Shown here: positions 9,519 to 48,742 of the stretch, piece after piece
How the letters are laid out: the number at the start of each line of letters is the position of its first letter
How positions within the stretch are numbered: the first letter of the stretch is position 1
NCBI GenBank assembly: GCA_903882645.1
Contig: CAIRXZ010000148.1
Coordinates: 6,554 to 70,553, forward strand
DNA length: 64,000 bases
Source: an uncultured Acidobacteriia bacterium
Lineage (GTDB): Bacteria; Acidobacteriota; Terriglobia; Bryobacterales; Bryobacteraceae
Reading direction: 5' to 3'
The notes under the pieces: model-generated
What the model saw: only the letters and a program-made list of their open reading frames with translations
Told to the model about the DNA's origin: nothing
Databases searched by the model: none
Made by a program: the position numbers and the translations under genes

Positions 9519-10093
9519 AGCTTCTCCAGAAACAGCGCGTGCACGCGCGAATCGGCGGTCAGTTCCGGGTGGAAGGTGGCCGCAAGATGCGCGCCCTGCT
9601 CGACCAGCACGGGGTCGCCCGCGTACCACGCCAGGACCGTCGCGCCGCGGCCCACGCTCCGGATCACGGGCGCGCGGATGAACACGGCTTCGAGCCTGCC
9701 GGGCGCGGTGCGCCGCTCGAACTCGGGGGCCGGGTCGAGCGGGGCGATGCGGCTATCCACCTGCCGGCCGTAGGCGTTCCGCTCGACTTCGATATCCATC
9801 AGCGAGAGGCTCTCCTGCTCCGGGCTCAGAACGCGAGTGGCGAGCAGGATGGCGCCGGCGCAGGTCCCGAAAATGGGCCTGGCGCGGCCGAACTCGACGA
9901 GCGCATCCAGAAGGCCGTCTTCGCGGAGGAGCTTGAGCATGGTGGTGCTTTCGCCGCCGGGGATGACCAGGCCGTCGATGGCGGCGAACTGCTCGCGCTC
10001 GCGCACGAAGACCGCCGCGGCGCCGGCGCGTTCCAGAGCCGCGCCGTGCGCCGCGAAATCTCCCTGCAAGGCGAGGATTCCGACCCGCTTCAT
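9515..10093 (-). CDS. pdxT: Pyridoxal 5'-phosphate synthase glutaminase subunit
   Basis: Inner ATG at 10093 ([13 protein letters not shown]). GTCAG nucleophile context and HPEL C-terminal motif. ATGA overlap with the pdxS stop. Confidence 0.92.
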   Translation of the reverse strand: MKRVGILALQGDFAAHGAALERAGAAAVFVREREQFAAIDGLVIPGGESTTMLKLLREDGLLDALVEFGRARPIFGTCAGAILLATRVLSPEQESLSLMDIEVERNAYGRQVDSRIAPLDPAPEFERRTAPGRLEAVFIRAPVIRSVGRGATVLAWYAGDPVLVEQGAHLAATFHPELTADSRVHALFLEKL

Positions 10094-10983
10094 CACCAGC
10101 CCCGGGTTTGCAGCAACTCCGATTCGGGCAGCTTGGCGATGTCCAACCCCGGCATGGCGTCGCCCAGCGCGCGGCTGGCGTCGAGCAATTTCTGAGGGTT
10201 GTCGAAATTCTTGGCCGCCAGTACGATGGCGTTGGCGCGCGCGACCGGGTCGGAGGATTTGAAGATTCCGGAACCGACGAACACCGCCTCGGCGCCGAGT
10301 TGCATGACCAGCGCCGCGTCGGCCGGGGTGGCGATGCCGCCGGCGGAGAAGTTCGGGACCGGCAGCTTGCCGTTTTGGGCGACCCACTCGACCAGGTCGA
10401 GGGGAGCCCCGAGGTTCTTGGCCTGATGCACCAGCTCTTCCTTTCCGAGCACGGTGAGCTGCTTCATCTCCTTAACTATGGTACGGATGTGGCGCACGGC
10501 CTCGACGATGTTCCCGGACCCGGCCTCGCCCTTGGTGCGGATCATGGCGGCGCCTTCGGCGATGCGGCGGAGCGCTTCGCCCAGGTTGCGCGCGCCGCAG
10601 ACGAACGGAACCGTGAAGCCGGTCTTATCGATGTGGTGCTCTTCGTCGGCGGGCGTCAGGACTTCGCTTTCGTCGATGAAGTCCACCTTGAGGATTTCCA
10701 GGATGCGCGCCTCCATGAAATGGCCGATGCGCGCTTTGGCCATGACCGGGATGTGGACCGTCTTCATGATCTCTTCGATCCTGGCGATGCTGGCCATGCG
10801 GGCGACGCCGCCTTCCTTGCGGATATCGGCCGGCACGCGCTCGAGCGCCATGACGGCCGAAGCGCCGGCATCTTCGGCGATCTTAGCCTGTTCGGCGTTG
10901 GTGACGTCCATGATGACGCCGCCCTTCAGCATCTCCGCGAGACCGACTTTCAACCGGAACTGCTCGTCTGAAAACTGAAACAT
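10093..10983 (-). CDS. pdxS: Pyridoxal 5'-phosphate synthase lyase subunit
   Basis: Inner ATG at 10983. Highly conserved PdxS sequence ([45 protein letters not shown]). Confidence 0.95.
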
Positions 10984-11071
10984 TGCGTTCTCCTCAAAAT
11001 CGCATCGGGCAGGCCGGGAGGCCTGCCCCACCACTGAAACACTGCGCTTCTCAAATAACCTTCAACTTCTC

Positions 11072-11095
11072 GGGCCGGGCATGCCCGGCCCCTAC
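11072..11095 (+). repeat. REP-like palindrome ending in CTAC
   Basis: gggccgggcatgcccggcccctac is identical to 24851..24874. A 20-nt perfect palindrome plus a CTAC tetranucleotide. Confidence 0.85.
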
Positions 11096-11122
11096 GGGCG
11101 AGGCGTCGCGCCGCCCCACGCA

Positions 11123-12610
11123 TTACACTAATGCGGGCGCGGGATCGAAACTGCGCCGGGAGTCCTCCAGCCCTGCTTCGACGATCCGGCCCAGCGCCCG
11201 AAGACCCGTGCGGATCTCGTCGGGCGCCAGGCCCGCAAAACTCAACCGCAAGGCGCCCGGCTCGGGGCGCGACACCGCGAAGTAGCGGCCCGGCACGTAC
11301 GCGACGCCTTCCTTGCGGGCGCGGGGCAGGAGCTCGCCCGCGTCGAGCGGCTCCGGCAGACGAACCCAAACGTTCATCCCCCCTTCCGGCTGCGTCCAGC
11401 GCGCGGCCGCGGGCAGATACCGGCGGCACGCGTCGAGCGTGGCGGCGAGGCGCTCGGCGCCGGCGCGCAGCACGCGCTGGCGGTGAGCTTCCAGGCGGCC
11501 CGAGATCGAGAATTCCAGGAGGACGGCCTGGGAAAGCTGGTCGGTGTGCAGGTCCGACGCCTCCTTGGCGTGGCGGAGGCGATCGATTAGCGGCTTCGGC
11601 CCGACCGCCCAGCCCACCCGGAGGCCGGGGAAACTCACCTTGGAGAAACTGCGCACCAGGACCGTGCTCCCGCTGTCGTCCAATTCCTTGATGGCGGGCA
11701 GCGGCTCGCCGTGGTACCGAAGCTCGCCATAGGAATCGTTCTCCACCACGGGAACGCCGGCCGAGCGCGCCATGTCGAGAAGCGCGCGGCGCGCGGCCAG
11801 GGGCAGAGTGGCGCCGGTGGGGTTCTGAAAGTTCGAAGTCACCACGATGAAGCGCGGCTTTTCGCGGCTGAGCGCGCGCTCCAGCCGATCCGTATCTAGC
11901 CCGTCGGGACCGACGGGAATTCCCACGAGCTGAGCGCCCATGCCGGCGAGCAGGTTCTTCAGGCCGGTGTACACGGGGTCCTCGACCACCACCCGGTCTC
12001 CCGGCCGGAGCAGCACGCGGCCGACGAGGTCGAGCGCCTGCTGGCAGCCGTTGGTAACGATGAGGTCGTCGCCGGGGCCGGCGAGGCGCTGGCGGCGGGC
12101 CTCGTCGAGAAGCCGGCGGCGCAACGGCTCATAGCCGCTGGGCGATCCGAGCTGGAGGATATCGGCGAGGTCGGAGCGGGCCAGAACCGCGGCGCAGCTC
12201 GCGCGAAAGTCGTCGAGCGGAAACAGCTCGCGCGAAGGGCGCGACATCACGAAGCTAATAAGCTCCCCGGCGGGCCCAAAGGGGGCACCGCCGGCAGGCC
12301 CGGAAGCCTCTTGGCCGGCGTGCCCGAGCAGGGCGGTCCAGTCGGTTCCGGCGCCGGTTGTGGAGCCGTTGCCCGTCACGAAGCTACCGCGCCCGACGTG
12401 ACCGGCGATCAAGCCCTCGGATTCCAGGATTTCGTAGGCGGCTGCGATGGTGGTCCGGTTCAGTCCAAGCAGGCCAGCCAATTCCCGAGTGGCTGGCATG
12501 CGTTCTCCTCGCCCCAGCTCGCCGGAACGAATCCTTGAGGCAAATTGCTCATAGACTTGCCGGTATAGTGGCGCTTCGGAACTCTGGTCGAGGCTGGGGG
12601 TGAACTCCAT
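11123..12610 (-). CDS. MocR-family (GntR HTH + PLP aminotransferase-fold) regulator, possible PdxR
   Basis: Inner ATG at 12610. N-terminal GntR wHTH (PLYRQVYEQFASRIRSGEL...PATRELAGLLGLNRTT) and a C-terminal fold-type-I aminotransferase domain with SFSK lysine. Lies directly upstream of pdxST. Confidence 0.8.
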   Translation of the reverse strand: MEFTPSLDQSSEAPLYRQVYEQFASRIRSGELGRGERMPATRELAGLLGLNRTTIAAAYEILESEGLIAGHVGRGSFVTGNGSTTGAGTDWTALLGHAGQEASGPAGGAPFGPAGELISFVMSRPSRELFPLDDFRASCAAVLARSDLADILQLGSPSGYEPLRRRLLDEARRQRLAGPGDDLIVTNGCQQALDLVGRVLLRPGDRVVVEDPVYTGLKNLLAGMGAQLVGIPVGPDGLDTDRLERALSREKPRFIVVTSNFQNPTGATLPLAARRALLDMARSAGVPVVENDSYGELRYHGEPLPAIKELDDSGSTVLVRSFSKVSFPGLRVGWAVGPKPLIDRLRHAKEASDLHTDQLSQAVLLEFSISGRLEAHRQRVLRAGAERLAATLDACRRYLPAAARWTQPEGGMNVWVRLPEPLDAGELLPRARKEGVAYVPGRYFAVSRPEPGALRLSFAGLAPDEIRTGLRALGRIVEAGLEDSRRSFDPAPALV

Positions 12611-12638
12611 CCATCCATACCATACCACAAGGAAGAGA

Positions 12639-12672
12639 GCCATCAGCGTCAAGCCATCAGCCTTCAGCTTGG
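12639..12672 (+). repeat. CAGC-rich repeat family (…CATCAGCCTTCAGCTTGG)
   Basis: Shares the catcagc/ttcagc units with 12855, 15525, 17196 and 29487. Confidence 0.7.
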
Positions 12673-12854
12673 AAGTGTGCGGAAACGGGATTGGGTTCGT
12701 TCCGCAGTTTCGGCGATTCCGAGGGCTGGGAGCTTGGGGAAGACGGCTCCTCAGGGCCGCTCGCGGAGCGATCACGCGGTGGATCGGACCCATTTTCGCA
12801 GAGGTGAAGGGCTTCGCTTTCTTGAGGTTAGGTACGAAAGTGGGTTCGTTCGGT

Positions 12855-12893
12855 AAAAAGCTGTCAGCCATCAGGCTTGAGCCTTCAGGCTGA
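12855..12893 (+). repeat. AAAAAGCTGTCAGC repeat family copy
   Basis: aaaaagctgtcagccatcaggcttgagccttcaggctga has the same 5' 15-mer as 17196..17234. Confidence 0.8.
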
Positions 12894-13100
12894 GAGCGCC
12901 CGGGGGCGCGTGCGCGGATTCGAGATTGCGGCTTTGAGGACATGGCTCCCTACTCCAGGATAGAACCGGGGTGTGCGGGGGATATAGTCAAGTGCTTTGT
13001 TTTGAGAGTGAAATTGGTTGTGAACGGGTTTTTCGGGGTGCCACATTTCAGCGGACAACGGGGGAGCAACGGCATACAATCGTAGAGATTCATCGCGATT

Positions 13101-13348
13101 ATGGCCAAGAAGCAGAAGCCGGCGAGCGCGCCCGCGGACGACGCACTGAAGAACGTCAGCGACTACCGTTTCCCGGAGGCGACGCGGAAGAACCGCCCGC
13201 CAAGATCGCAGCCGAAGGCTACGTTCCGCTGGTCCCGAAGGCCGAGTATTTGTACAGTCCGCGGCACCCGCCGGGGCTCCGGTTCGATCCGTCGGGCAGC
13301 GCCGATGAATTGGGTATTTCCAGAGGGCGACAACATTCAACCACGTAG
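13101..13348 (+). pseudogene. Frameshifted N-terminal remnant of a DNA methyltransferase (type III/N6-N4 methylase-like)
   Basis: Frame 1 reads MAKKQKPASAPADDALKNVSDYRFPEATRKNRPP. After a 1-nt shift the next frame reads KIAAEGYVPLVPKAEYLYSPRHPPGLRFDPSGSADEL. Joined, this follows the Y-R-H-x-E/A-T-R-K-N-x-P-P...Y-x-Y-D-P-H-L-D-P-Q-L N-terminal pattern I recall from such methylases. No catalytic domain follows, and the reading ends at a repeat. Confidence 0.5.
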
Positions 13349-37951: not shown

Positions 37952-38827
37952 ATGAGGTTCCCTATGGACCGTCCGGCCACCGCCAATCCCGCCACAGCCC
38001 GGGAGATCATCCTCGAAATCGTGCGGAATATGCGTGAGGGTCTGGAGCCGCTGCATTACTCGACCCTCGCGCCGGCCATCTACCATGTGTACCTGCATCC
38101 CGGAGACATGGAGCGTCTTCGCGGCATCTTTCCCCGCATCGCCGATGAGGCGCGCCGGGCCCTCGACGCGGAGCTGGACTCGCTCAACCGCGCCTCGTTC
38201 GCGGAGCGCTTGAAGCTCGCCCGCCGCTCCGAGCCTCGTATCGCGCCGCCGGAGGGCGGCTGGCAGGTCCAAATTCTGGAAAACACCGACGACGACGCCG
38301 AGCCCGGCGACATCGTGATCTATTCGGAGCTGGCCATGCCCGCCAAACCCGAGTTCGGTGGCGGAGCGATGACCAAGCGCATCGCCACGCGCCGTTTGGG
38401 CGGCGCGCAAACCGCCGCGCAGCCGGTCTATGAACAGGCCCCCAGCCCCGAGGCCGCGCCGCAAGGCGCCTGCGCCGTGATCGAGTACGAAGACAACGGC
38501 GGCAAGAAGACCTACCGCATGACCAAGGACGAAATCGTGGCCGGGCGCGGCGGGCGCGACTATTGGACCGACCTCAAGTTCGACACGCTGCCCGACGTTT
38601 CGCGCGAGCATTTCCGGCTGCGGCGCGATCCCGCGAGCGGCAGGTTTTTCCTCAAGGACCTGAGCCGTCTCGGCACTACCGTCAATGGCGAGAAGGCCCC
38701 CTCGAGCGTCGAGTTCGTCGAGGGCGAGAAGCGCGACCGCAACCTCGAAGCGCCGGTCCCGGACCGGGCGCGCATCGGCTTGGCGGATGTGCTCTTTCTC
38801 GATTTCCGAAGCGCATCGAATGGCTAA
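37952..38827 (+). CDS. FhaA-like protein (DUF3662-like N-terminus + C-terminal FHA domain)
   Basis: N-terminal LAPAIYHVYLHPGDMERL pattern. C-terminal FHA core IVAGRG...VSREHFRL...FLKDLSRLGTTVNGE. Confidence 0.8.
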   Translation: MRFPMDRPATANPATAREIILEIVRNMREGLEPLHYSTLAPAIYHVYLHPGDMERLRGIFPRIADEARRALDAELDSLNRASFAERLKLARRSEPRIAPPEGGWQVQILENTDDDAEPGDIVIYSELAMPAKPEFGGGAMTKRIATRRLGGAQTAAQPVYEQAPSPEAAPQGACAVIEYEDNGGKKTYRMTKDEIVAGRGGRDYWTDLKFDTLPDVSREHFRLRRDPASGRFFLKDLSRLGTTVNGEKAPSSVEFVEGEKRDRNLEAPVPDRARIGLADVLFLDFRSASNG

Positions 38828-40337
38828 GACAAAGGTAAAGTGCGCGGGGGCGAGCGATCTGGGCCTGATGCGCCGGAACAACGAAGACGCGTTTTACATC
38901 GACGCCGACCGCGGCATTTTCCTGGTGGTGGACGGCATCGGAGGGCAGGCGGCCGGCGAAAAGGCCGCGGAGATCGCGATCGAGCGCGTGCGCGCGCGCC
39001 TGGAGCGGCGAACCGGCGCGGCGGAGCAGCGCGTTCGCGAAGCCATCGCCGTGGCGAACAACGAAATCCTGCGCGTGGCGCGCTCCAACAAGGAGTGGGA
39101 AGGCATGGCCTGCGTGCTCACGCTGGCGGTGCTGGAAAATGGCTCGGCCGTGGCGGGGCACGTGGGCGATTCGCGCCTGTACCACGTTCGCGGCGGCCAG
39201 ATCCGCAAGATCACGCACGACCATTCGCCGGTGGGCGAGCGCGAAGACAGCGGCGAGCTGACCGAAACCGAGGCCATGCGCCACCCCCGCCGCAACGAGG
39301 TGTTCCGCGACGTAGGCTCGGAAGAGCACGCCCCCGACGACCCCGACTTCATCGAGATCCAGCGCTTTCCCTTCGAGCCGGACAGCGCACTGGTACTGTG
39401 CAGCGACGGACTGAGCGACCAGGTGGCTTCGCAGCGGATTTGCGACGAGGTAATTCGCAACGCCGGATCTCCCGATTCGGCGGCGCGCCAGTTGATCGGA
39501 CTGGCGAACCGCGCCGGCGGCAAGGATAATGTCACCGTCGTGGTGGTGGAAGGCGAGGAGTTCGCGGATGCGGCGCGTCCCGAGATGGGCGGCCGCGGGG
39601 CCTTTCCCCGCTGGGCGCAACTGGCGGCCGGATGCGTCCTCTCGCTGGGTCTGGGATTTCTGGCGGGCCGGATGTCGGCGCCCAAGCCGCCCAAGCCGGC
39701 GCCGCCCGCGCGCGTCCTGACGGCCGGCCCCGGCGCGGCGTTCGGGAGCATTTCCGAGGCCCTGGCGCAGGCCCGCCCAGGCGATGCGGTCGAGGTATTG
39801 GCCGGGGAGTACGCCGAACAGGTGCGGCTCAAGAGCGGCGTGACCTTGCGCGCCCGCGACGCCATTCTCCGCGCCGCGCCGATGGGCAACGGCCCCGCCG
39901 TCATCGCGGAGCGGGTTGCGAACGCCCGCGTCACGGGCTTCCGTATTGAAGCCGGCGACGACGCGCCGCTACCGGTGGGAATCCTCCTGACCGATTCGGA
40001 CGTGGAGTTGGAGGACATCGAGGTGTCCGGCGCGGGTGTCGGAATCGAGATCCGCGGCGCCGCCAAACCCGTGCTGCGCGCCAACTCGATCCACGATTGC
40101 ACGGACGTTGGCATCCTGATTTCCGGCCCGTCGGAGCCCTGGATCTCGCACAATACGCTGCGCGGCAACACCATCGGGCTGGCCGCCCGCGACGGCGCGC
40201 GGCCCGCCTTGTCCGGGAACGTTTTCGACGGGAACGGCGCGACCCTGCCGCCGGAGATTTCCATGGCCGATGTGCGCGCGCGCAATTTGTTCGTGAACAT
40301 CAAACCCGCCCGCTCCCGAGGCCGCAAGAAGCCATGA
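38820..40337 (+). CDS. PP2C Ser/Thr phosphatase fused to a TM helix and an extracytoplasmic parallel beta-helix domain
   Basis: Inner ATG at 38820 (8-nt overlap with the FHA gene). PP2C motifs RRNNEDAF, VVDGIGG, GDSRLY and GGKDNVTVVVV. TM helix WAQLAAGCVLSLGLGFLAG. Then repeated 22-25-aa beta-helix turns (VTGFRIEAG, VELEDIEVSGAGVGIEIRG, NSIHDCTDVGILISG, NTLRGNTIGLAA). Confidence 0.8.
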   Translation: MAKTKVKCAGASDLGLMRRNNEDAFYIDADRGIFLVVDGIGGQAAGEKAAEIAIERVRARLERRTGAAEQRVREAIAVANNEILRVARSNKEWEGMACVLTLAVLENGSAVAGHVGDSRLYHVRGGQIRKITHDHSPVGEREDSGELTETEAMRHPRRNEVFRDVGSEEHAPDDPDFIEIQRFPFEPDSALVLCSDGLSDQVASQRICDEVIRNAGSPDSAARQLIGLANRAGGKDNVTVVVVEGEEFADAARPEMGGRGAFPRWAQLAAGCVLSLGLGFLAGRMSAPKPPKPAPPARVLTAGPGAAFGSISEALAQARPGDAVEVLAGEYAEQVRLKSGVTLRARDAILRAAPMGNGPAVIAERVANARVTGFRIEAGDDAPLPVGILLTDSDVELEDIEVSGAGVGIEIRGAAKPVLRANSIHDCTDVGILISGPSEPWISHNTLRGNTIGLAARDGARPALSGNVFDGNGATLPPEISMADVRARNLFVNIKPARSRGRKKP

Positions 40338-42346
40338 TCGCCCCGGCCGGCCGCAGACTCGGCAAGTACGAGATCCGCCGCAAGCTCGGCCGCGGCGGAA
40401 TGGCCGATGTCTACCTGGCGGAGGACGCGGAAAGCAGAGGCCTGGTCGCGCTGAAGCTCATCGAACACAGCGAGGACGCCGATACGCGCGATTTCATCGA
40501 CGCCGAGCGCCGCGGCGCGGGATTGCAGGCGCGCCTGGCGGCGGTCGATTCGCGCGTGACCCGCGTCTACGACGTGGGCGACATCGACGGCTTCTTCTTC
40601 GTCGCCATGGAATACATCGATGGCCAGGATCTCGCGGACCTGATGCGGCGCGGCCCGCTGGCGGTGGAGTTCGCCGCGGATGTGGCCATCGCGGTGGCCG
40701 GAGCGCTGGAGAGCGCACACGGTTTGCACGTGGCCATCGAGGGCAAGGACTTTCAGGGCATCGTGCACGGCGATATCAAGCCGAAGAACATCCGCATCGA
40801 TTCCCACGGCGAAGTGCGCGTGCTCGATTTCGGTATCGCCAAGGCGCTCTCACTGTCGCGCCGGCTCACGCGCAACGAATTCGGCAGCGTCCCGTACGCT
40901 TCGCCGGAGCGCCTGGATTCGGGCCAGGTGGACGCCCAGTGCGATCTTTGGTCGCTGGCCGTGATGTTCTACGAGATGGTCACGGGCCTGCAGCCCTACC
41001 AGGCCGCGAACACCGAACACCTGGAGCGCATGATCCGTTCGCGGATTCCGCCGCCTCCCGCCCCCGACCCTTGCCCGGAGCCGCTGCGCCGCATCCTGGC
41101 GAAGGCCATGGCGCCGGATCCCGCCCTGCGCTATGCCACCGCGGGCGACCTTGCCGCCGACCTCGGCGCCTTCCGCCGCGGCGAGCCGGTGCGGGCCATG
41201 ACCGAGGATCTCGAGGCCACCGGCCGCACCCCGGCGATAGGGGACGATGCCACCCGCCGCACCGCGCCACGCCCAGGCGCGCCGGGGGAAGAGACGCGCC
41301 AAACCGCGCCGGCGGGGCAGAGCATCGTTTCTCGTGGTCCGCCGCCGCCCGTGGCCCGCGCCGAATGGCCGTACGCCAGCGGCCGCGAGCCGCCCGGCGC
41401 TTTGACCGTCATGACCATGCGCGGGGTCGCGGCGTTGGCAGTGGCCGCGGCGATCTTCCTTGCGTGGTCGGCGGTTTCCGCCTATCGGCTGTACGGGCGC
41501 GGCCAGGATTTCGAGCGCCAGGTGGAGACCGAACAGCTCACCGACCTGGACCAGATCTGGGGCAGGTGGACGGAACTTTCCAAGGGGCATTCCTCGTCTT
41601 GGCTGTTACGGGGACCGGGAGACGCGATGAAGCGGAAATTCGCCGAGGCGGCCGGACGCGTGATTGACTCCTACCGCAACGACGCGCAGCAGTTGTACGA
41701 GGCCGATTGGCGCCGCGCCCGCACGTACCTGACCCGCGCCTTGGCGGCCGGACCCGATGGAACCGTCCTCGGAGATCTGCGCCTGTGCGACGGGCACCTC
41801 GCGCGCATCAATGGCACGGCCCATCGCAGCCCCGCGGCGTTGAACGAGGCGGTTCAGGACTTCAACGAAGCCCAAAGCCTGATGCCGAACTCGCCCGACC
41901 CGGAGCTGGGCTTGGCGCGCGTCTACGTCTACGGCCTCAAGGACATCGACAAAGCCAACGAGGCGCTTCAGCAAGCCGCCAAGCGCGGATACACGCCCGG
42001 CAACCGCGACAAGGCGCAGCTTGCGGACGGATATTGCGACCGGGCCGACCGGCTTTGGTGGGACTCCCGCAACGTGCGCGGTTTGCCTCAGGAGAAGGAC
42101 CGGATCGGGCGCGCGGCCGCGGATTATCGAACCGCCCTCGGACTGTACCAGAGCGTCGCGCCCTATGGAAACGCGAACGCCCGGATCGTGCGCATCCAGA
42201 ACGACCTCGAGAGCGTGAACACGCGGTTGCAGCAGATCGAGCTGAGCGAGGCCGGAGGGCCGGCGGTGGGATCCGCCATCAACGCCGTCCGCCGCTTGTT
42301 GCAGCAGATCGCGCCGAGCAAAGCGGGAGGGCCGGTGCAGCAGTGA
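40334..42346 (+). CDS. Hanks-type Ser/Thr protein kinase with TM helix and extracytoplasmic helical (TPR-like) domain
   Basis: ATGA overlap with the PP2C gene. GRGGMADVYLA, ALK, HGDIKPKNI, DFGIAK and APE-like SPE motifs. TM helix VAALAVAAAIFLAWSAV. Confidence 0.88.
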   Translation: MIAPAGRRLGKYEIRRKLGRGGMADVYLAEDAESRGLVALKLIEHSEDADTRDFIDAERRGAGLQARLAAVDSRVTRVYDVGDIDGFFFVAMEYIDGQDLADLMRRGPLAVEFAADVAIAVAGALESAHGLHVAIEGKDFQGIVHGDIKPKNIRIDSHGEVRVLDFGIAKALSLSRRLTRNEFGSVPYASPERLDSGQVDAQCDLWSLAVMFYEMVTGLQPYQAANTEHLERMIRSRIPPPPAPDPCPEPLRRILAKAMAPDPALRYATAGDLAADLGAFRRGEPVRAMTEDLEATGRTPAIGDDATRRTAPRPGAPGEETRQTAPAGQSIVSRGPPPPVARAEWPYASGREPPGALTVMTMRGVAALAVAAAIFLAWSAVSAYRLYGRGQDFERQVETEQLTDLDQIWGRWTELSKGHSSSWLLRGPGDAMKRKFAEAAGRVIDSYRNDAQQLYEADWRRARTYLTRALAAGPDGTVLGDLRLCDGHLARINGTAHRSPAALNEAVQDFNEAQSLMPNSPDPELGLARVYVYGLKDIDKANEALQQAAKRGYTPGNRDKAQLADGYCDRADRLWWDSRNVRGLPQEKDRIGRAAADYRTALGLYQSVAPYGNANARIVRIQNDLESVNTRLQQIELSEAGGPAVGSAINAVRRLLQQIAPSKAGGPVQQ

Positions 42347-42373
42347 AAAGCCGTTGTGGCGCACGCCCGTGGG

Positions 42374-42457
42374 GCAGGCTTTTCAGCCTGCGGACCCGCT
42401 TTCCAGCGGGTCCAGCCGGCCGGAAGGCCGGCTTGCGGGCAAGATTGCCCGCCCCAC
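42374..42457 (+). repeat. Array of four consecutive GC-rich hairpins (last ends in GCCCCAC)
   Basis: gcaggct-tttc-agcctgc; ggacccgc-tttcca-gcgggtcc; gccggcc-ggaa-ggccggc; gcgggca-aga-ttgcccgc+cccac. Lies between the kinase stop and the SEDS::PBP start. Confidence 0.85.
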
Positions 42458-42470
42458 CCAGGTACCGCCC

Positions 42471-45400
42471 ATGGCTATAACTCGCAGCCGAATCACGGAC
42501 CGCGCGGAAATCCGGCGTCCGCGGGGAGGCCGCGCGGCCTGGCGGCGCACCGAGTTTGTGTGGATGCTGGCGGCCGGCATCCTGGCGGGAATCGGCCTGT
42601 TCCAGGTTTACAGGGCCAAGTCCCAGCCGTTCGAGGAGATCTCGAAGGCTCTGGCGGCGAAGCGCGCGATCGATCTGAACGGTCTTTCCGCGCGCGAGGA
42701 CTTGCTGCCCGCGCTCGCCATGTTCCCCGACCCTTCGGAGCGCGAATTCGTGGCGCGCAAGATCTACTACCTCTCCGGCGGGCTTGCGAACGTGGGCGCC
42801 ATCGCGCGCATCCGCGCGACCGCCGATGAAATCGGCCGCGGCCGCGCGTTGCAGGGCCTTCGCGCCCGGCTTGGCGGACGCGATTCGATGCCCCTGCTCA
42901 GCCCCGAGCAGCTTCGCGATCTGAAGCCGATGTTCGTGGTGCGCCGGCCGGAACGGTTCCGGCGCGCGTTCCTGCTGTGGACCGGCATCTTCTTCGCGGC
43001 GTTCCTGCTGGCGCACGCGTGGTGGAGCATCCGCGGGTTTCGCGGCGACCAGTGGATGCTGCCCGCGCTCCTGCTGCTCACCGGCGCCGGGCTGACTCTC
43101 ATGACCGGGATGCGCGACCCGCTTCGCGATAACCTCCTGTTCGTGGATTTCGCCCAAGGCGTGGCGGGCGGCGCGGCGTTGTTGGTGGCCGCCAGCGCGC
43201 TCGATTTCGAACGCCTGCTCGGGAAATTGAGCTTCGTCCCGCTGCTCGGCAGCCTGGCGCTTTCCGTGCTGCTGATCCTGTTTGGCAATGGCCCGGGATC
43301 GAGCGACGCCAAGGTCAACCTCCTGGGCTTTCAGCCGGTGGAGTTGATTCGCATCCTGCTGGTCCTGTTCCTGGCCGGGTATTTCGCGAACCGCTGGGAC
43401 GTGCTGCGGCACGCGCGCGAGACGCGCGCATCCGTCTCCGCGCTGACCAGGCATCTCGATATCCCGCCGCTCGAGTACACCATTCCGGTGCTGGCCTCGG
43501 TCGCGCTGTCGCTGGTCTTCTTCTTCCTGCAAAAGGATATGGGGCCGGCGCTGGTGTTCGGCTGCCTGTTTCTCACGCTCTACGGCATGGCGCGCGGGAG
43601 CGCGTTCGTGCCCGCGGCCGGCCTCGCGCTGCTGGCCGCGGGTTTTGTTGCCGGGTATGCGATCGGCGTTCCGCACACGGTGAGCCAGCGCGTCGCCATG
43701 TGGCTTTCTCCATGGGACAACCTGGTACACGGGGGCGACCAGTTGGCGCACTCGCTGTGGGCGTTCTCCACCGGCGGCTTGTGGGGCGCCGGAATCGGGC
43801 TGGGCAGCCCGCAGCTCGTACCCGCGGCGCACACCGATCTGATCCTCTCCGCGTTGGGCGAGGAACTCGGTTTTTGGGGCGTGGCGGCGGCGTTCGCGCT
43901 CTACGCCATGATCGTCTGGCGCGCGTTTCGCATCGCCCTGCGCGCGCGCACAGACTACGAGTTCTTCCTGGCGGCCGGACTGGCGGCGGCCACGGCGTTG
44001 CAGTTGCTCGTCATCGCCTGCGGCGCGCTGGGCGTCATGCCGCTCACCGGCGTGGTGACGCCGTTCCTGAGCTACGGGCGCTCGGCCATGCTGGCCAATT
44101 TCCTGGTGATTGGAATTCTGCTTTCGATTTCGGACCGGGGCGGGGAAACGGACCGAACCATTCCTTTCCGGCCGGCGGCGATGGTAGCCGGCGCCGTCTT
44201 CGCCGCCGTGGGCGCCGCCGCGCTGGCCAAGGCCGGCTACGTGCAAGTGGCGCGCGACGAGGCGGTGATGGCGCAGGGCACGCTGGTGGTGCAGGCCGAC
44301 GGCGCGAGGCGCTATCAGTACAACCCGCGATTTCAAGAGGTCATGAACGAGATTCCCAAAGGCTCCATTTACGACCGCAACGGCTTGCCACTCGCCAGCA
44401 GCGATTGGAGCGAACTCGAGAAGCACCGCGCCGAGTACCGTCAGCTCGGCATCGATATCGACTTGGCCTGCGCGCGCGCGGAGAGCCGCCACTACCCGTT
44501 CGGCGGGCTGATGTTCGACCTGCTCGGAGACCTGCGCACGCGCGAGCGATGGGGCGCGGGCAATACGTCGTTCGTGGAGCGCGATTCGGCGCGCAGGCTG
44601 CGCGGCTACGACGACCGGCCCACGCTGGTGGAAGTGAGGAATCCCAAGACCAAGGCGATGGAGCGCGTCCTCCGCTACGATTACCGCGAGCTCGTGCCGC
44701 TGCTGCGCCATCGCCACGAGCCCGGCAGCCCCGAGGTGCGCCGCGTGCTCGAACGTCCGCGCGACATCCACATGTCGGTGGACGCGCGGCTTCAAGTGCG
44801 CGTTGGCGAGATCCTGCGCCGGCAGTTGCAGCAGGCCAAGGTGGACAAGGGCGCGGCAGTCGTGCTGGACCCGGCCACGGGCGACCTGCTCGCCGCGGTG
44901 AGCATTCCGCAGCCGGACGAAGCCGCCGCGCAGGGCGCCGGCCAGCGGGCGGACGCCGCCGGCGACGCCGCCAATCCTTATCTCGACCGCGCGCGCTACG
45001 GCCTGTACCCGCCCGGTTCCACGTTCAAAGTAGTGACCGCCATGGCCGCGCTGCGCAAAGATCCGGGGTTGACGCGCAAGACCTACGAGTGCATCCGGCT
45101 GCCCGGCGGGCGCGTGGGCAACACGATCAAGGGATCGAGGCGGCCGATCCGCGACGACGTGGAGGACAAGAACCCTCACGGAACGGTCGACATGGAGCGG
45201 GGCATCGTGGTCTCGTGCAACGCGTACTTCGCCCAACTGGGAACCTACGACGTGGGCGCGGAAGCGCTGCTCGACGCGGCCAACCTGTTGGGCATCGCGG
45301 CCGCCTCGCCGGCGACCGCCGAGCAATTGCGCAAGTCGCTGCCGCAGTCTTCCTACGGTCAGGGGCAGGTGGTGGCGACGCCGTTCCAAATGGCGCGGGT

Positions 45401-45788
45401 GGCGGCCACCGTGGCCAACGGCGGGGCCATGCCGGGGGGCCGCTGGATCACCGATGAAACCAATTCGCGGACCGCCGAGCCGCGCGCCGTGCTGCCGCCC
45501 GAAGCCGCGGGAACCCTGGCGCGCTTCATGCGCGAAGTGGTGACCTCCGGGACGGGACGCCGCGCGGCCGGCGCGAGCGTGGCGATAGCCGGCAAGACCG
45601 GCACGGCCGAGCTTGCCGATGCGCCGTCGCACGCCTGGTTCATCGGTTACGCTCCGTATGGAGCGGGCGCGCGCAAGATCGCCTTCTCCGTGCTGGTGGA
45701 GAATGGAGTATACGGCGGCGCCGCCGCCGCGCCGGCCGGGGCCGCGATCGCCGACGCCGCGGCGAAGTTGGGGCTGATCCAGCCATGA
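42471..45788 (+). CDS. Fused SEDS (FtsW/RodA) glycosyltransferase - class B PBP transpeptidase
   Basis: Inner ATG at 42471. A ~190-aa N-terminal extension, then a SEDS polytopic core (…FQPVELIRILLVLFLAGYF…, …TDLILSALGEELGFWG…, …GVMPLTGVVTPFLSYGRSA…). Then a PBP dimerisation-like region and a transpeptidase with STFK, SCN and KTGT motifs. Confidence 0.85.
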   Translation: MAITRSRITDRAEIRRPRGGRAAWRRTEFVWMLAAGILAGIGLFQVYRAKSQPFEEISKALAAKRAIDLNGLSAREDLLPALAMFPDPSEREFVARKIYYLSGGLANVGAIARIRATADEIGRGRALQGLRARLGGRDSMPLLSPEQLRDLKPMFVVRRPERFRRAFLLWTGIFFAAFLLAHAWWSIRGFRGDQWMLPALLLLTGAGLTLMTGMRDPLRDNLLFVDFAQGVAGGAALLVAASALDFERLLGKLSFVPLLGSLALSVLLILFGNGPGSSDAKVNLLGFQPVELIRILLVLFLAGYFANRWDVLRHARETRASVSALTRHLDIPPLEYTIPVLASVALSLVFFFLQKDMGPALVFGCLFLTLYGMARGSAFVPAAGLALLAAGFVAGYAIGVPHTVSQRVAMWLSPWDNLVHGGDQLAHSLWAFSTGGLWGAGIGLGSPQLVPAAHTDLILSALGEELGFWGVAAAFALYAMIVWRAFRIALRARTDYEFFLAAGLAAATALQLLVIACGALGVMPLTGVVTPFLSYGRSAMLANFLVIGILLSISDRGGETDRTIPFRPAAMVAGAVFAAVGAAALAKAGYVQVARDEAVMAQGTLVVQADGARRYQYNPRFQEVMNEIPKGSIYDRNGLPLASSDWSELEKHRAEYRQLGIDIDLACARAESRHYPFGGLMFDLLGDLRTRERWGAGNTSFVERDSARRLRGYDDRPTLVEVRNPKTKAMERVLRYDYRELVPLLRHRHEPGSPEVRRVLERPRDIHMSVDARLQVRVGEILRRQLQQAKVDKGAAVVLDPATGDLLAAVSIPQPDEAAAQGAGQRADAAGDAANPYLDRARYGLYPPGSTFKVVTAMAALRKDPGLTRKTYECIRLPGGRVGNTIKGSRRPIRDDVEDKNPHGTVDMERGIVVSCNAYFAQLGTYDVGAEALLDAANLLGIAAASPATAEQLRKSLPQSSYGQGQVVATPFQMARVAATVANGGAMPGGRWITDETNSRTAEPRAVLPPEAAGTLARFMREVVTSGTGRRAAGASVAIAGKTGTAELADAPSHAWFIGYAPYGAGARKIAFSVLVENGVYGGAAAAPAGAAIADAAAKLGLIQP

Positions 45789-46552
45789 GCATTTTTTCGG
45801 AGATCGAGAAAACCATCGAGCGCGGCTTCCGCCACTGGACCGAGCGCGTCTTCGGACCGGCCGATGCGGACCAGTTGACGCTGACGCACCGCGCGATTCT
45901 GGCGGAGATCGAAACCAGGATCCAAACCGCGGCGCGCGGCCGGCGCGTGTTCCCGTATCCGCGGATCGCGGTGACGCTGGTCTCGGCGGACGCGGACCGC
46001 CGCGCGCTCTACCGGACGGCGTTCGGCGAAGGCGGGCGGCTGGAGAGCGACGTTCGAGAGGTTCTGGAAGGCTCGCGCTGCGAGGTCCCGCGCGGCTTTT
46101 CCGTGGAGGTGCGCACGGCGGAGAGCGGGCCGCGGGCGTTCGAGATCGAGTACGGCGCGGAGCTGCGCGCGAGCGAGCCGGCCGCGCCGGCCCGCGTGGT
46201 TATCGTTCGCGGCAAGGCGGAGCGCGCCGAGTACGCGCTGGAGAAGCCGCGCACGAACATCGGCCGCACGGCCGAGCTGACCGACGCCGGACAGCGCGTG
46301 GCGCGGCGCAACGACATCGTATTCGAGGAGGGCGCCGACGAAGCCAACGCCACCGTCTCCCGCGGCCACGCGCACATCCGCCTGGAGGCCGGCGAATACC
46401 GCATCCGCGACGACGGCAGCGAATACGGAACGCGGGTTTTCCGCGCCGGCCGTTCGATCGAGGTCCCCGCCGGGAACCGCCGCGGAGAGAAACTTCGTCC
46501 GGACGACGAGATCTACCTGGGCCGCGCCTGCATGCGTTTCGAGCGCGGCTGA
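45785..46552 (+). CDS. Second FhaA-like protein (DUF3662-like N-terminus + FHA)
   Basis: ATGA overlap with the SEDS::PBP gene. MSIFSEIEKTIERGFRHW N-terminus. FHA core NIGRT...VSRGHAHI...YRIRDDGSEYGTRV. Confidence 0.82.
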   Translation: MSIFSEIEKTIERGFRHWTERVFGPADADQLTLTHRAILAEIETRIQTAARGRRVFPYPRIAVTLVSADADRRALYRTAFGEGGRLESDVREVLEGSRCEVPRGFSVEVRTAESGPRAFEIEYGAELRASEPAAPARVVIVRGKAERAEYALEKPRTNIGRTAELTDAGQRVARRNDIVFEEGADEANATVSRGHAHIRLEAGEYRIRDDGSEYGTRVFRAGRSIEVPAGNRRGEKLRPDDEIYLGRACMRFERG

Positions 46553-46720: not shown

Positions 46721-48742
46721 TAGCCTGACTTTCGCAGTTGACGACAGTTTTCCGCCATTTTGGGGTGGTTTCGTCGCGCAAGTCCTTGCGCGTCAATGAC
46801 GGCCTCTCGCCACCGCGTGTAGGGCAGACCTACCCTCTTTTCAACGGGCGAAAACTCTGGCATTCTGCCGATAGCGATGCATCTGAAAACGCACCGGCGG
46901 AACAAAGACGGCAAGGAGCATCGCTATTTCAGCGTGGTCGAGAACCGGCGCCTGCGCACCGGGAAGATGGCTCAGCGCCGCGTGCTGTACCTGGGCGAGA
47001 TCAACGACAGCCAGCAAGCCGCGTGGCGCAAGACGCTGGAAGTCTTCGATGAGAGCGAGCAACGGTTCACTGAGCTGAGCCTGTTTCCGGAAGACCGCGA
47101 CCTTCCGCGCGACGCGGTCAACAGCATTCAGATCAAGCTCGACCAGATGGAGCTGCATCGTCCGCGGGCTTGGGGCAACTGTTGGCTGGGCTGCGAGCTC
47201 TGGCGCCAGTTGCGGCTGGACGAGTTTTGGAGTGCGCAGTTGCCATCCCAGCGGGAGGCCGTGCCTTGGGAGAGGGTGTTGCAGTTGCTGGTGGTAAATC
47301 GGCTGATCGATCCTGGCAGCGAGTTCCGGCTGCATCGGCAGTGGTTCGACCAGAGCGCGATGGCGGAGTTGTTGGGGGTGGATTTTGCGGTTGCCGAAAA
47401 GGACCGGCTGTACCGCTGCCTGGACCGCATTGGCGATCGCAAACAGGAGTTGTTCGTGTATCTGCGGCAGCGCTGGCAGGACCTGTTCGGCGCGCACTTC
47501 GACATTCTGCTCTACGATCTGACCAGCACCTATTTTGAGGGCGAGGCGGAGGAGACGCCCAAGGCGAAGCGGGGATATAGCCGGGACCACCGGCCGGATT
47601 GCCTGCAGGTGGTGCTGGCGCTGGTGATCACGCCGGAGGGGCTTCCCCTGGCCTACGAGGTAATGGACGGCAACACCTCGGATCGCACGACGCTGCGCGG
47701 ATTTCTGGAGCAGGTCGAGAAGATCCACGGCAAGGCGCGGCGCGTGTGGCTGATGGATCGCGGCATCCCGACCGAGGAGGTCCTGGGAGAGATGCGCGCC
47801 GCCGGCGACGTGTTCTATCTGGTGGGAACGCCGCGGGGCAAGATTCAACGGTACGAGAAGAAGTGGCTGGCCTTGCCCTGGCAGAAGGTGCGCGATTCGG
47901 TGGAGGTGAAGTTGTCCGCCGAAGACGGCGAGTTGTACGTGCTGGCCAAGAGCGAGGGGCGGCGCGCCAAGGAGAGGGCGATCCGGAGGCGCAAGCTGGC
48001 GCGGCTGTTGTGGAAGCTGCGCGCGATGCGGAGAAGTTGTCCGGCGCGCGACCAGTTGCTGCTGCGCATCGGCGCGGCCAAGAAAGAGGCCGGCCGGGCG
48101 TATGGCTTCGTGCGGATTTCGTTGCCCAAGGACGGCGCGGAAGTCACCCGCCGCAGTTTCACTTTCGCCGTGGACCGGGACAAACTTGGGAAGGCAGAAC
48201 GGCGGGACGGCCATTACCTGCTGCGTTCGAATCTGGCGGGCGAGGATCCGGCCGTGCTGTGGGATCGTTACGTTCAGCTGACGCAGGTGGAGGCCGCGTT
48301 CAAAACTATGAAAAGCGAGTTGGGCCTGCGTCCAATCTATCACCAGGTCGCACAGCGCGTGGAGGCGCACATCCTGGTGGCGTTTCTGGCGTACTGTCTG
48401 ACGGTGACTCTGAGGCAGCGGCTGCAAGCGCTGGCGCCTGGTTTGACGCCGAAGGCGGTGCTGGAAAAGCTGGCCGCGATCCAGATGTTGGATGTGTGCT
48501 TCCCGACCACCGACGGGCGGTGGCTGATCATGCCGCGCTATACGCAACCCACGCCGGAACAGCAGGTCCTGTTCCACACGCTCAAGCTCAATCTGCCTTC
48601 CCAGCCGCCACCCAAAATCAAGGTCCGCGCCGAGAGCGAGCCTGCCCAAAGGCTCCGTTTGTAGGGCAGACCTTTTCGATGTCTCCGCTGAAAAACAAGG
48701 AGTTAAGCTGCCCCCGACCCCCGAACTGCGAAAGATCGGTTA
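46721..48742 (+). mobile_element. IS1634-family (IS4-related) insertion sequence, ~2.0 kb
   Basis: Imperfect terminal inverted repeats TAgCCtgaCTTTCGCAGTT (46721-46739) and AACTGCGAAAGatcGGtTA (48724-48742) flank a single transposase ORF. Inserted 25 nt after tRNA-Asn. No target duplication is obvious. Confidence 0.7.
46877..48664 (+). CDS. IS1634-family DDE transposase
   Basis: 595 aa. The N-terminus MHLKTHRRNKDGKEHRYFSVVENRRLRTGKMAQRRVLYLGEI matches the family-typical K-x-H-x-Y-W/F-S-L/V-V-E...R-Q/R-R-V-x-Y-LGE opening. Confidence 0.85.
   Translation: MHLKTHRRNKDGKEHRYFSVVENRRLRTGKMAQRRVLYLGEINDSQQAAWRKTLEVFDESEQRFTELSLFPEDRDLPRDAVNSIQIKLDQMELHRPRAWGNCWLGCELWRQLRLDEFWSAQLPSQREAVPWERVLQLLVVNRLIDPGSEFRLHRQWFDQSAMAELLGVDFAVAEKDRLYRCLDRIGDRKQELFVYLRQRWQDLFGAHFDILLYDLTSTYFEGEAEETPKAKRGYSRDHRPDCLQVVLALVITPEGLPLAYEVMDGNTSDRTTLRGFLEQVEKIHGKARRVWLMDRGIPTEEVLGEMRAAGDVFYLVGTPRGKIQRYEKKWLALPWQKVRDSVEVKLSAEDGELYVLAKSEGRRAKERAIRRRKLARLLWKLRAMRRSCPARDQLLLRIGAAKKEAGRAYGFVRISLPKDGAEVTRRSFTFAVDRDKLGKAERRDGHYLLRSNLAGEDPAVLWDRYVQLTQVEAAFKTMKSELGLRPIYHQVAQRVEAHILVAFLAYCLTVTLRQRLQALAPGLTPKAVLEKLAAIQMLDVCFPTTDGRWLIMPRYTQPTPEQQVLFHTLKLNLPSQPPPKIKVRAESEPAQRLRL

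Follow-up and report, generated by a model that had tools for sequence, protein, structure and literature searches.

The SEDS protein (named after shape, elongation, division and sporulation) of a bacterial cell-wall synthase ends in the cytoplasm, and its partner, the penicillin-binding protein of class B (bPBP), begins there. Because these two termini are both cytoplasmic, a short linker suffices to fuse the proteins in the order SEDS-then-bPBP. Fusions of canonical enzymes have been built in the laboratory, as in Bacillus subtilis SpoVE-SpoVD and in Escherichia coli RodA-(GGGS)3-PBP2, which returns cells largely to rod shape and is able to polymerise lipid II in vitro (PMC6207328). Fusions also occur in nature: a 2025 survey in Microlife describes 117 natural chimeras of a transpeptidase with an FtsW/RodA/SpoVE domain, termed 'bifunctional class B', and its main-text examples from Pedobacter ginsengisoli and Senegalimassilia faecalis have genes for Ser/Thr kinases and phosphatases as neighbours (PMC12516126). 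The subject of this analysis is a fusion gene of this kind from an uncultured Acidobacteriia bacterium, contained in a stretch of 64,000 nucleotides (the window) of contig CAIRXZ010000148.1 (assembly GCA_903882645.1). The explanation that best accounts for the locus as a whole, and which can be regarded as probable, is that the gene encodes a natural single-chain SEDS-bPBP synthase controlled by Ser/Thr phosphorylation from within its own operon.

The comparison with each of the described systems yields both likenesses and differences. With the canonical RodA-PBP2 and FtsW-FtsI synthases (PDB 6pl5, 8tj3, 8bh1), the window protein shares the SEDS fold of ten transmembrane (TM) helices, an Asp at the catalytic position in extracellular loop 4 (ECL4), and a bPBP with a single anchor helix and the motifs SxxK, SxN and KTG; the canonical synthases, however, are made of two chains from two genes, with the ECL2 Trp and the motifs QPD and SYGG intact. 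The engineered fusions have the same domain order and a similarly short cytoplasmic linker, whereas the window protein is natural, divergent and equipped with extra N-terminal elements. Like the natural chimeras, it joins a SEDS glycosyltransferase and a bPBP transpeptidase in one chain, follows the order glycosyltransferase, pedestal, transpeptidase seen in a 947-aa Rhodococcus jostii protein, and has kinase and phosphatase neighbours, as in Pedobacter and Senegalimassilia (main text of PMC12516126). It differs from the chimeras described there in the two TM helices and the predicted periplasmic insert that its family has added before the SEDS core, in the absence of a recognisable PBP_dimer or PBPA_dimer match in the window sequence, and in an Asn in place of the ECL2 Trp. 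The main text of the survey does not discuss acidobacterial members.

The closest parallel for the gene neighbourhood is the fhaA-fhaB-pstP-rodA-pbpA-pknA-pknB cluster of Mycobacterium tuberculosis (Rv0014c-Rv0020c), an actinobacterial arrangement documented in PMC6554272. FHA, PP2C, SEDS, PbpA-type bPBP and Hanks-type kinase genes are linked in both, and the PBP half of the window protein is closest to M. tuberculosis PBPA in sequence and in fold. The window cluster differs in its gene order, in the fusion of rodA with pbpA, in having one kinase instead of two, in a TPR-like ectodomain where the mycobacterial kinase has PASTA, in a beta-helix domain on the phosphatase, and in its Gram-negative host phylum.

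The fusion gene is a single frame of 1105 codons with an ATG start and a TGA stop (Table 1). A longer frame could begin at a TTG at 42354; the ATG at 42471 is taken as the start because an MA(V/I)TRS N-terminus is common to about 60 orthologues. Pfam places FTSW_RODA_SPOVE (PF01098) at aa 234-555 (E 6e-51; 174 bits, cut-off 26.4) and Transpeptidase (PF00905) at aa 794-1093 (E 4.5e-40, 138 bits). An AlphaFold 2 (AF2) model of the whole chain, built on 90 sequences, has a mean predicted local distance difference test score (pLDDT) of 91.1 and a predicted template-modelling score (pTM) of 0.82. Hydropathy and AF2 together give 13 membrane helices: helix a (aa 29-47), helix b (166-184), ten SEDS helices (195-555) and the bPBP anchor (568-586). 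From the N-terminus, the chain would thus read tail, helix a, periplasmic helix-hairpin-helix (HhH) module, helix b, ten-TM SEDS core, linker, anchor, pedestal and PbpA-like transpeptidase domain. An initial annotation, made from the DNA sequence, had described a single polypeptide of SEDS and class-B PBP parts with STFK, SCN and KTGT motifs, and the reading frame, the Pfam matches and the motif positions bear this out.

The gene is genuine and has been kept across the Acidobacteriota. Since separate adjacent SEDS and bPBP genes are the usual state and the window belongs to a metagenome assembly of low coverage (contig word depth 3-6), it could be supposed that a frameshift or a lost stop codon has joined neighbouring rodA-like and pbpA-like genes. 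The fused frame, however, is found in more than 120 full-length homologue clusters (90% identity clustering) at 70-81% identity to the window protein, under names that include Bryobacteraceae, Candidatus Sulfopaludibacter and Solibacter usitatus Ellin6076, and about 100 of the best 150 representatives of 50%-identity clusters are 930-1390 aa long. A search of GTDB species genomes yields 80 loci, 63 of them with clean full-length proteins (51-79% identity), in Bryobacterales, Acidobacteriaceae (Occallatibacter savannae), Terriglobales and Thermoanaerobaculia; the uninterrupted frame and its short linker are present in at least 60 independent species genomes. The junction itself, which the annotation had singled out for re-examination, is free of frameshifts and stops: Logan contigs from four pond-metagenome runs, independently assembled at 3-6x depth (contigs, not raw reads), span 43900-44500 with 0 differences and 0 indels. 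Conservation of the fused frame and recovery of the junction in independent contigs exclude a frameshift, and the chance that the gene is an assembly or sequencing artefact is vanishingly small.

The SEDS core aligns with profile positions 3-355 of TIGR02614 (NCBIfam FtsW) over aa 195-555, and its PDB matches are RodA (6bar, 6pl5) and FtsW (8bh1). Ten hydrophobic and AF2 helices lie within this region, with termini that are presumably cytoplasmic; the third to fifth helices of the fusion correspond to SEDS TM1-3 in an alignment with E. coli RodA and FtsW. Asp456, which lies in an HTD motif, is equivalent to D255 of Thermus thermophilus RodA and D297 of E. coli FtsW in ECL4. The equivalog scores are low: 177.7 against a cut-off of 337.5 for FtsW, 131.9 against 336.7 for RodA (TIGR02210) and 174.1 against 455 for PBP2. 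Judged by its sequence, the fusion can be assigned to neither FtsW nor RodA and belongs to a distinct SEDS subfamily.

In the PBP half, S850, K853, S915, N917 and K1042 are invariant in 90 relatives. The best PDB sequence match is M. tuberculosis PBPA (3un7, E 7.5e-28), and Foldseek aligns the model with the whole PBPA chain (E 1.6e-18, TMt 0.73-0.75). The pedestal-like region of about 200 residues between anchor and transpeptidase domain has a mean conservation of 0.79, and pedestal profiles are recognised in some relatives: PBP_dimer (PF03717) in 13/41 and PBP_dimer_2 (PF21922) in 5/41. The model also matches transpeptidase domains (TMt 0.73-0.77) in four structural-genomics entries, PDB 4r23, 4qjg and 4r1g from Atopobium parvulum and 4mnr from Eggerthella lenta. 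These carry the name 'peptidoglycan glycosyltransferase' although they are transpeptidase domains, and they may be fragments of natural Coriobacteriia SEDS-bPBP fusions.

The initial annotation was right about the length of the N-terminal extension, given as about 190 residues (about 194 precede SEDS TM1); it had counted one TM helix, and hydropathy and AF2 give two (aa 29-47 and 166-184). Exactly two TM-like segments precede the SEDS core in 217 of 296 related fusions, with inserts of varying length between them. The tail (aa 1-28) contains 9 Lys and Arg residues, and its MA(V/I)TRS....R motif hardly varies among about 60 orthologues with identities as low as 51%; in the wider set of 90 relatives, T4 is present in 62 and S6 in 52.

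The insert between the two helices (aa 48-162) is modelled with a pLDDT of about 90. A Pfam scan of the extension in the window sequence gives no match at E<=10, and when the N-terminal domain is taken by itself, Foldseek finds nothing significant in the PDB (the top hit, the lytic transglycosylase MltE at E 6.4, is treated as noise). In 41 diverse relatives, Pfam recognises HHH_3 (11/41), CarboxypepD_reg (8) or T2SSK (3) at the insert site, and hhalign connects the window-type insert with the HHH_3-positive inserts of distant relatives (probability 91.9%, E 6.9e-7). A profile of the window-type extension matches 268 of 363 collected relatives in hmmsearch and none of 17 distant relatives that were looked up by name, among them the HHH_3-positive P0243, P0338 and P0247; the window-type and HHH_3-type inserts are therefore linked through profile-profile comparison only. 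The insert is read as a degenerate HhH module of the ComEA type (HHH_3, PF12836): it has the NLN...L..L...A..I pattern and a predicted periplasmic location in common with that type, but it has lost the GIG hairpin, and nothing in it points to DNA binding.

The fusion lies in a cassette of five genes in the order FHA1, PP2C, kinase, fusion and FHA2, in agreement with the kinase and FHA neighbours noted in the initial annotation. To judge from its sequence, the cassette is translationally coupled. By tblastn, the order is conserved in about 60 of the 80 loci, including those at 51-56% identity, and FHA2 lies beside the fusion in almost every locus with downstream sequence, including loci without kinase genes. 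Some relatives carry the signalling modules on the synthase polypeptide: P0133 joins PP2C to a full synthase (1389 aa), P0356 combines FHA, SEDS and transpeptidase (1328 aa), and P0354 combines a TM segment, FHA and SEDS (631 aa). These fusions support a direct functional tie between phospho-signalling modules and the synthase.

The single-chain synthase would have several consequences. The fusion would fix SEDS and bPBP at 1:1, and glycan polymerisation (by the SEDS core, with Asp456) and cross-linking (by the transpeptidase domain, with Ser850) would take place in one molecule. If the actinobacterial cluster is taken as a guide, the activity or placement of this synthase is most likely controlled by reversible Thr/Ser phosphorylation that is read by the FHA proteins. 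The tail with its MAVTRS....R motif is a candidate phospho-acceptor and FHA-binding site, and the probable contacts of the periplasmic module are the pedestal or ECL4, or else an envelope ligand.

Several observations weigh against this explanation. The positions of W138, P196 and G381, which are essential in E. coli FtsW, are replaced family-wide: the ECL2 Trp (W138) is Asn in 89/90 relatives, with an ECL2 shorter by 5 residues; P196 is Lys or Arg in 88/90; and G381 is non-Gly in 81/90 (57 R, 14 N, 10 K), with Gly kept in 9/90, so that the ECL5 motif SYGG (Y379, G380, G381 of E. coli FtsW) becomes SYGR in the window. The positions of Y242 and R243 are T/V in the window family. W138A renders E. 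coli FtsW non-functional and strongly dominant-negative, and several of the residues replaced here are ones whose mutation inactivates that enzyme (PMC8765783). With these family-wide replacements, polymerase activity cannot be assumed, and the main rival to an active synthase is a SEDS module that no longer polymerises and serves as a lipid II-binding, scaffold or sensing domain for a PbpA-like transpeptidase, which would use glycan strands made by others. Chloroflexota fusions with a PBPA_dimer domain, which keep the Trp and the GG, fit this rival too. Against it stand the invariance in 90 relatives of Asp456, Q288, P289, E291, D356, G358, R407 and G536; replacements that are themselves near-invariant, suggesting a selected, remodelled site rather than decay; and a SEDS core that is conserved as well as the transpeptidase domain (mean 0.79 versus 0.77). 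The loss of SEDS catalytic residues, which the initial annotation had named as the finding that would count against it, thus does not extend to Asp456, although the family has substitutions at the ECL2 Trp and at two further cavity positions. On balance, a SEDS module that has lost its polymerase function is unlikely. The other points against a phospho-controlled synthase are these: the fusion scores far below the NCBIfam equivalog cut-offs; no pedestal is matched by Pfam in aa 555-815 of the window sequence (E<=10); the kinase is without PASTA, which leaves the analogy with PknB incomplete; the MAVTRS motif is limited to the acidobacterial clade and missing from more distant relatives; and the phospho-site in the tail is one that we infer.

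The initial annotation proposed that the soluble segment (AAKRAIDLNGLSAREDLL...LKP), about 115 residues long, is a cytoplasmic docking or phosphorylation platform for the kinase and FHA proteins, whose genes adjoin; its 21 Lys and Arg residues and the RRPERFRR flank would be consistent with the positive-inside rule. The N-terminus of a SEDS core is cytoplasmic. The tail should be cytoplasmic as well, because P0133 has PP2C fused directly upstream of that end, and the insert, flanked by two hydrophobic helices, would then lie on the opposite side from the tail before a SEDS core that must start inside. The insert is accordingly predicted to be periplasmic, and the domains found at its site in relatives (HHH_3, T2SSK and CarboxypepD_reg) are typical of the periplasm. 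A periplasmic insert would be no docking site for cytoplasmic kinase or FHA domains, which makes the platform model quite unlikely; of the whole extension, only the 28-residue tail would be within reach of the kinase and FHA proteins in the cytoplasm. The single-chain synthase can also be refined, rather than contradicted, by assigning it an accessory role: the cassette would encode a condition-specific enzyme for stress, morphogenesis or differentiation beside the canonical RodA-PBP2 and FtsW-FtsI, and not the machinery of housekeeping elongation. The chimeras of Pedobacter, Senegalimassilia and others coexist with canonical SEDS-bPBP pairs (main text of PMC12516126), some acidobacterial genomes hold a further copy whose sole cassette partner is the downstream FHA gene, and the scores well under the FtsW and RodA cut-offs point in the same direction. 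No further SEDS or bPBP gene is present within the 64-kb window. The chances of an accessory role appear evenly balanced. A more ambitious joint reading, in which a phylum-wide synthase has a remodelled SEDS site (Trp to Asn, QPD to QKD, SYGG to SYGR), is gated by the periplasmic HhH module and is switched by a phospho-Thr in MAVTRS that a co-translated FHA protein reads, is doubtful; if true, it would define a SEDS subclass that differs from RodA and FtsW in substrate, product or activation mechanism.

Table 1. Features of the fusion gene and its cassette (window coordinates; aa numbering refers to the product)
Feature	Position	Strand	Description and basis
Fusion gene	42471..45788	+	SEDS + class-B PBP, 1105 aa, 13 predicted TM helices; ORF (open reading frame) and translation, Pfam, AF2
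N-terminal tail, aa 1-28	42471..42554	+	Arg-rich, MA(V/I)TRS....R; candidate phospho-acceptor/FHA-docking peptide (inferred)
Extra TM helix a, aa 29-47	42555..42611	+	Hydropathy 1.83; AF2 helix 26-51
Soluble insert, aa 48-162	42612..42956	+	Predicted periplasmic; small, all-helical, degenerate ComEA-like HhH
Extra TM helix b, aa 166-184	42966..43022	+	Hydropathy 1.78; AF2 helix 160-188
SEDS (FtsW/RodA/SpoVE) core, aa 195-555	43053..44135	+	10 TM; TIGR02614, PDB matches
Asn283	43317..43319	+	At ECL2 Trp position (E. coli FtsW W138); MAFFT with E. coli FtsW and RodA
Asp456	43836..43838	+	Equivalent of the putative catalytic Asp; HMMER to 6bar, MAFFT; invariant in 90/90
Junction linker	44136..44171	+	Cytoplasmic, 12 residues (RGGETDRTIPFR), SEDS TM10 to bPBP anchor helix; sequence, independent contigs
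bPBP membrane-anchor helix, aa 568-586	44172..44228	+	Hydropathy 1.93; AF2 helix 560-594
Pedestal-like region, aa 587-790	44229..44840	+	Divergent, contains IPKGSIYDRNGLPLA; conservation, Foldseek
DD-transpeptidase domain, aa 791-1105	44841..45785	+	PF00905; PDB 3un7
STFK, aa 850-853	45018-45029	+	Sequence
SCN, aa 915-917	45213-45221	+	Sequence
KTGT, aa 1042-1045	45594-45605	+	Sequence
FHA protein 1 (FHA1)	37952..38827	+	291 aa, FHA at aa 201-254, first gene of the run; Pfam
PP2C phosphatase	38820..40337	+	C-terminal beta-helix/NosD-like domain; Pfam, start checked; ATG in 8-nt overlap with FHA1 stop
Hanks-type Ser/Thr kinase	40334..42346	+	One TM helix, TPR-like ectodomain; Pfam, start checked; ATGA overlap with PP2C stop
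FHA protein 2 (FHA2)	45785..46552	+	255 aa, FHA at aa 159-246; Pfam; ATGA overlap with fusion stop

The neighbouring proteins have features of their own. The FHA domains of FHA1 and FHA2 are significant in Pfam, and the solved FHA domains nearest to that of FHA2 are those of OdhI and GarA. A match to FhaA_N is weak in FHA1 (22.3 bits against a cut-off of 25) and weaker in FHA2 (13.1 bits, E 0.14). Recent duplication of one FHA gene into the other was considered and set aside, as BLASTP finds no significant similarity between the two. The kinase has HGD in place of HRD in its catalytic loop (a non-RD kinase) and an ectodomain of roughly 280 aa, in which Pfam finds weak TPR matches only and no PASTA; the muropeptide signal proposed for PknB is unlikely to be its input. 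In the phosphatase, a weakly hydrophobic segment (WAQLAAGCVLSLGLGFLAG) precedes the C-terminal right-handed beta-helix/NosD-like domain, and the protein would be a PstP-like membrane phosphatase with an unusual, probably periplasmic, beta-helix ectodomain.

A second type of locus (L023, L027, L036, L039 and L054, with the fusion at about 10001-13300) encodes a fusion of about 67% identity, which still has the MAVTRS tail and is followed by FHA2; the upstream FHA1, PP2C and kinase genes are missing. L018 and L027 come from one metagenome-assembled genome, so some genomes hold two fusion copies. A tie between this kinase-less paralogue and amino-sugar genes was rejected, since other loci do not share the ROK, SIS and MFS genes that lie upstream in L027. 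One 6.3-kb contig binned as Burkholderiales (L052, DASRFY010000069.1) carries the acidobacterial cassette at 64% identity and is probably misbinned.

The spacer of 124 nt that follows the kinase stop and precedes the fusion (42347-42470) folds into four tandem GC-rich hairpins, with stems of 7-9 bp and loops of 4 nt, inside an outer stem. Its minimum free energy is -80.2 kcal/mol (z -5.8), and 0 of 200 shuffled sequences fold as well. An Rfam search of the spacer gives no credible match (15 bits against a cut-off of 36). The element is not conserved here among orthologous loci, whose gap is often shorter than 20 nt, and short pieces of it match other intergenic spots (L025, L057); it therefore looks like a REP-like (repetitive extragenic palindromic) insertion, which could influence how well the fusion mRNA is translated or how stable it is. 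Outside the spacer, the window has a single cluster in which three perfect hairpins of 7 bp or more fall within 130 nt. This cluster lies at 11007-11135, at what seems to be a gene boundary, and may be a palindromic element of the same kind. On the opposite strand, an ORF of 1117 aa (42279-45632, minus strand) shadows nearly the whole fusion; such frames are typical of 68-70% GC and are not evidence of a gene. About 320 nt past the last gene of the cassette there is a DDE_Tnp_1 transposase ORF of 595 aa (46877-48664), and a crude search for a terminal inverted repeat of this element gives no exact one of 14 nt.

The idea of a fused synthase is itself already known, which limits the surprise. 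The initial annotation had regarded the architecture as unusual and the fusion as a natural test of SEDS-bPBP stoichiometry: natural chimeras were published in 2025 (main text of PMC12516126), and that test has in effect been done with the engineered RodA-(GGGS)3-PBP2 (PMC6207328). In the open-access text, no description was found of the acidobacterial family as such, of the two extra helices with the HhH-derived insert, of the Trp-less SEDS signature or of the conserved five-gene cassette.

SEDS-bPBP pairs are core bacterial cell-wall polymerases and antibiotic targets, and their mode of activation is under active study. A naturally covalent pair that is well predicted and abundant in soil Acidobacteria may be suited to the structural biology and enzymology of a single chain. 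The family also offers a natural experiment: its SEDS core does without the ECL2 Trp that is supposed to be essential and retains the catalytic Asp. The cassette would extend the actinobacterial control logic of kinase, phosphatase and FHA proteins to a Gram-negative phylum, and the PP2C-synthase and FHA-synthase fusions suggest that regulation acts on the synthase itself.

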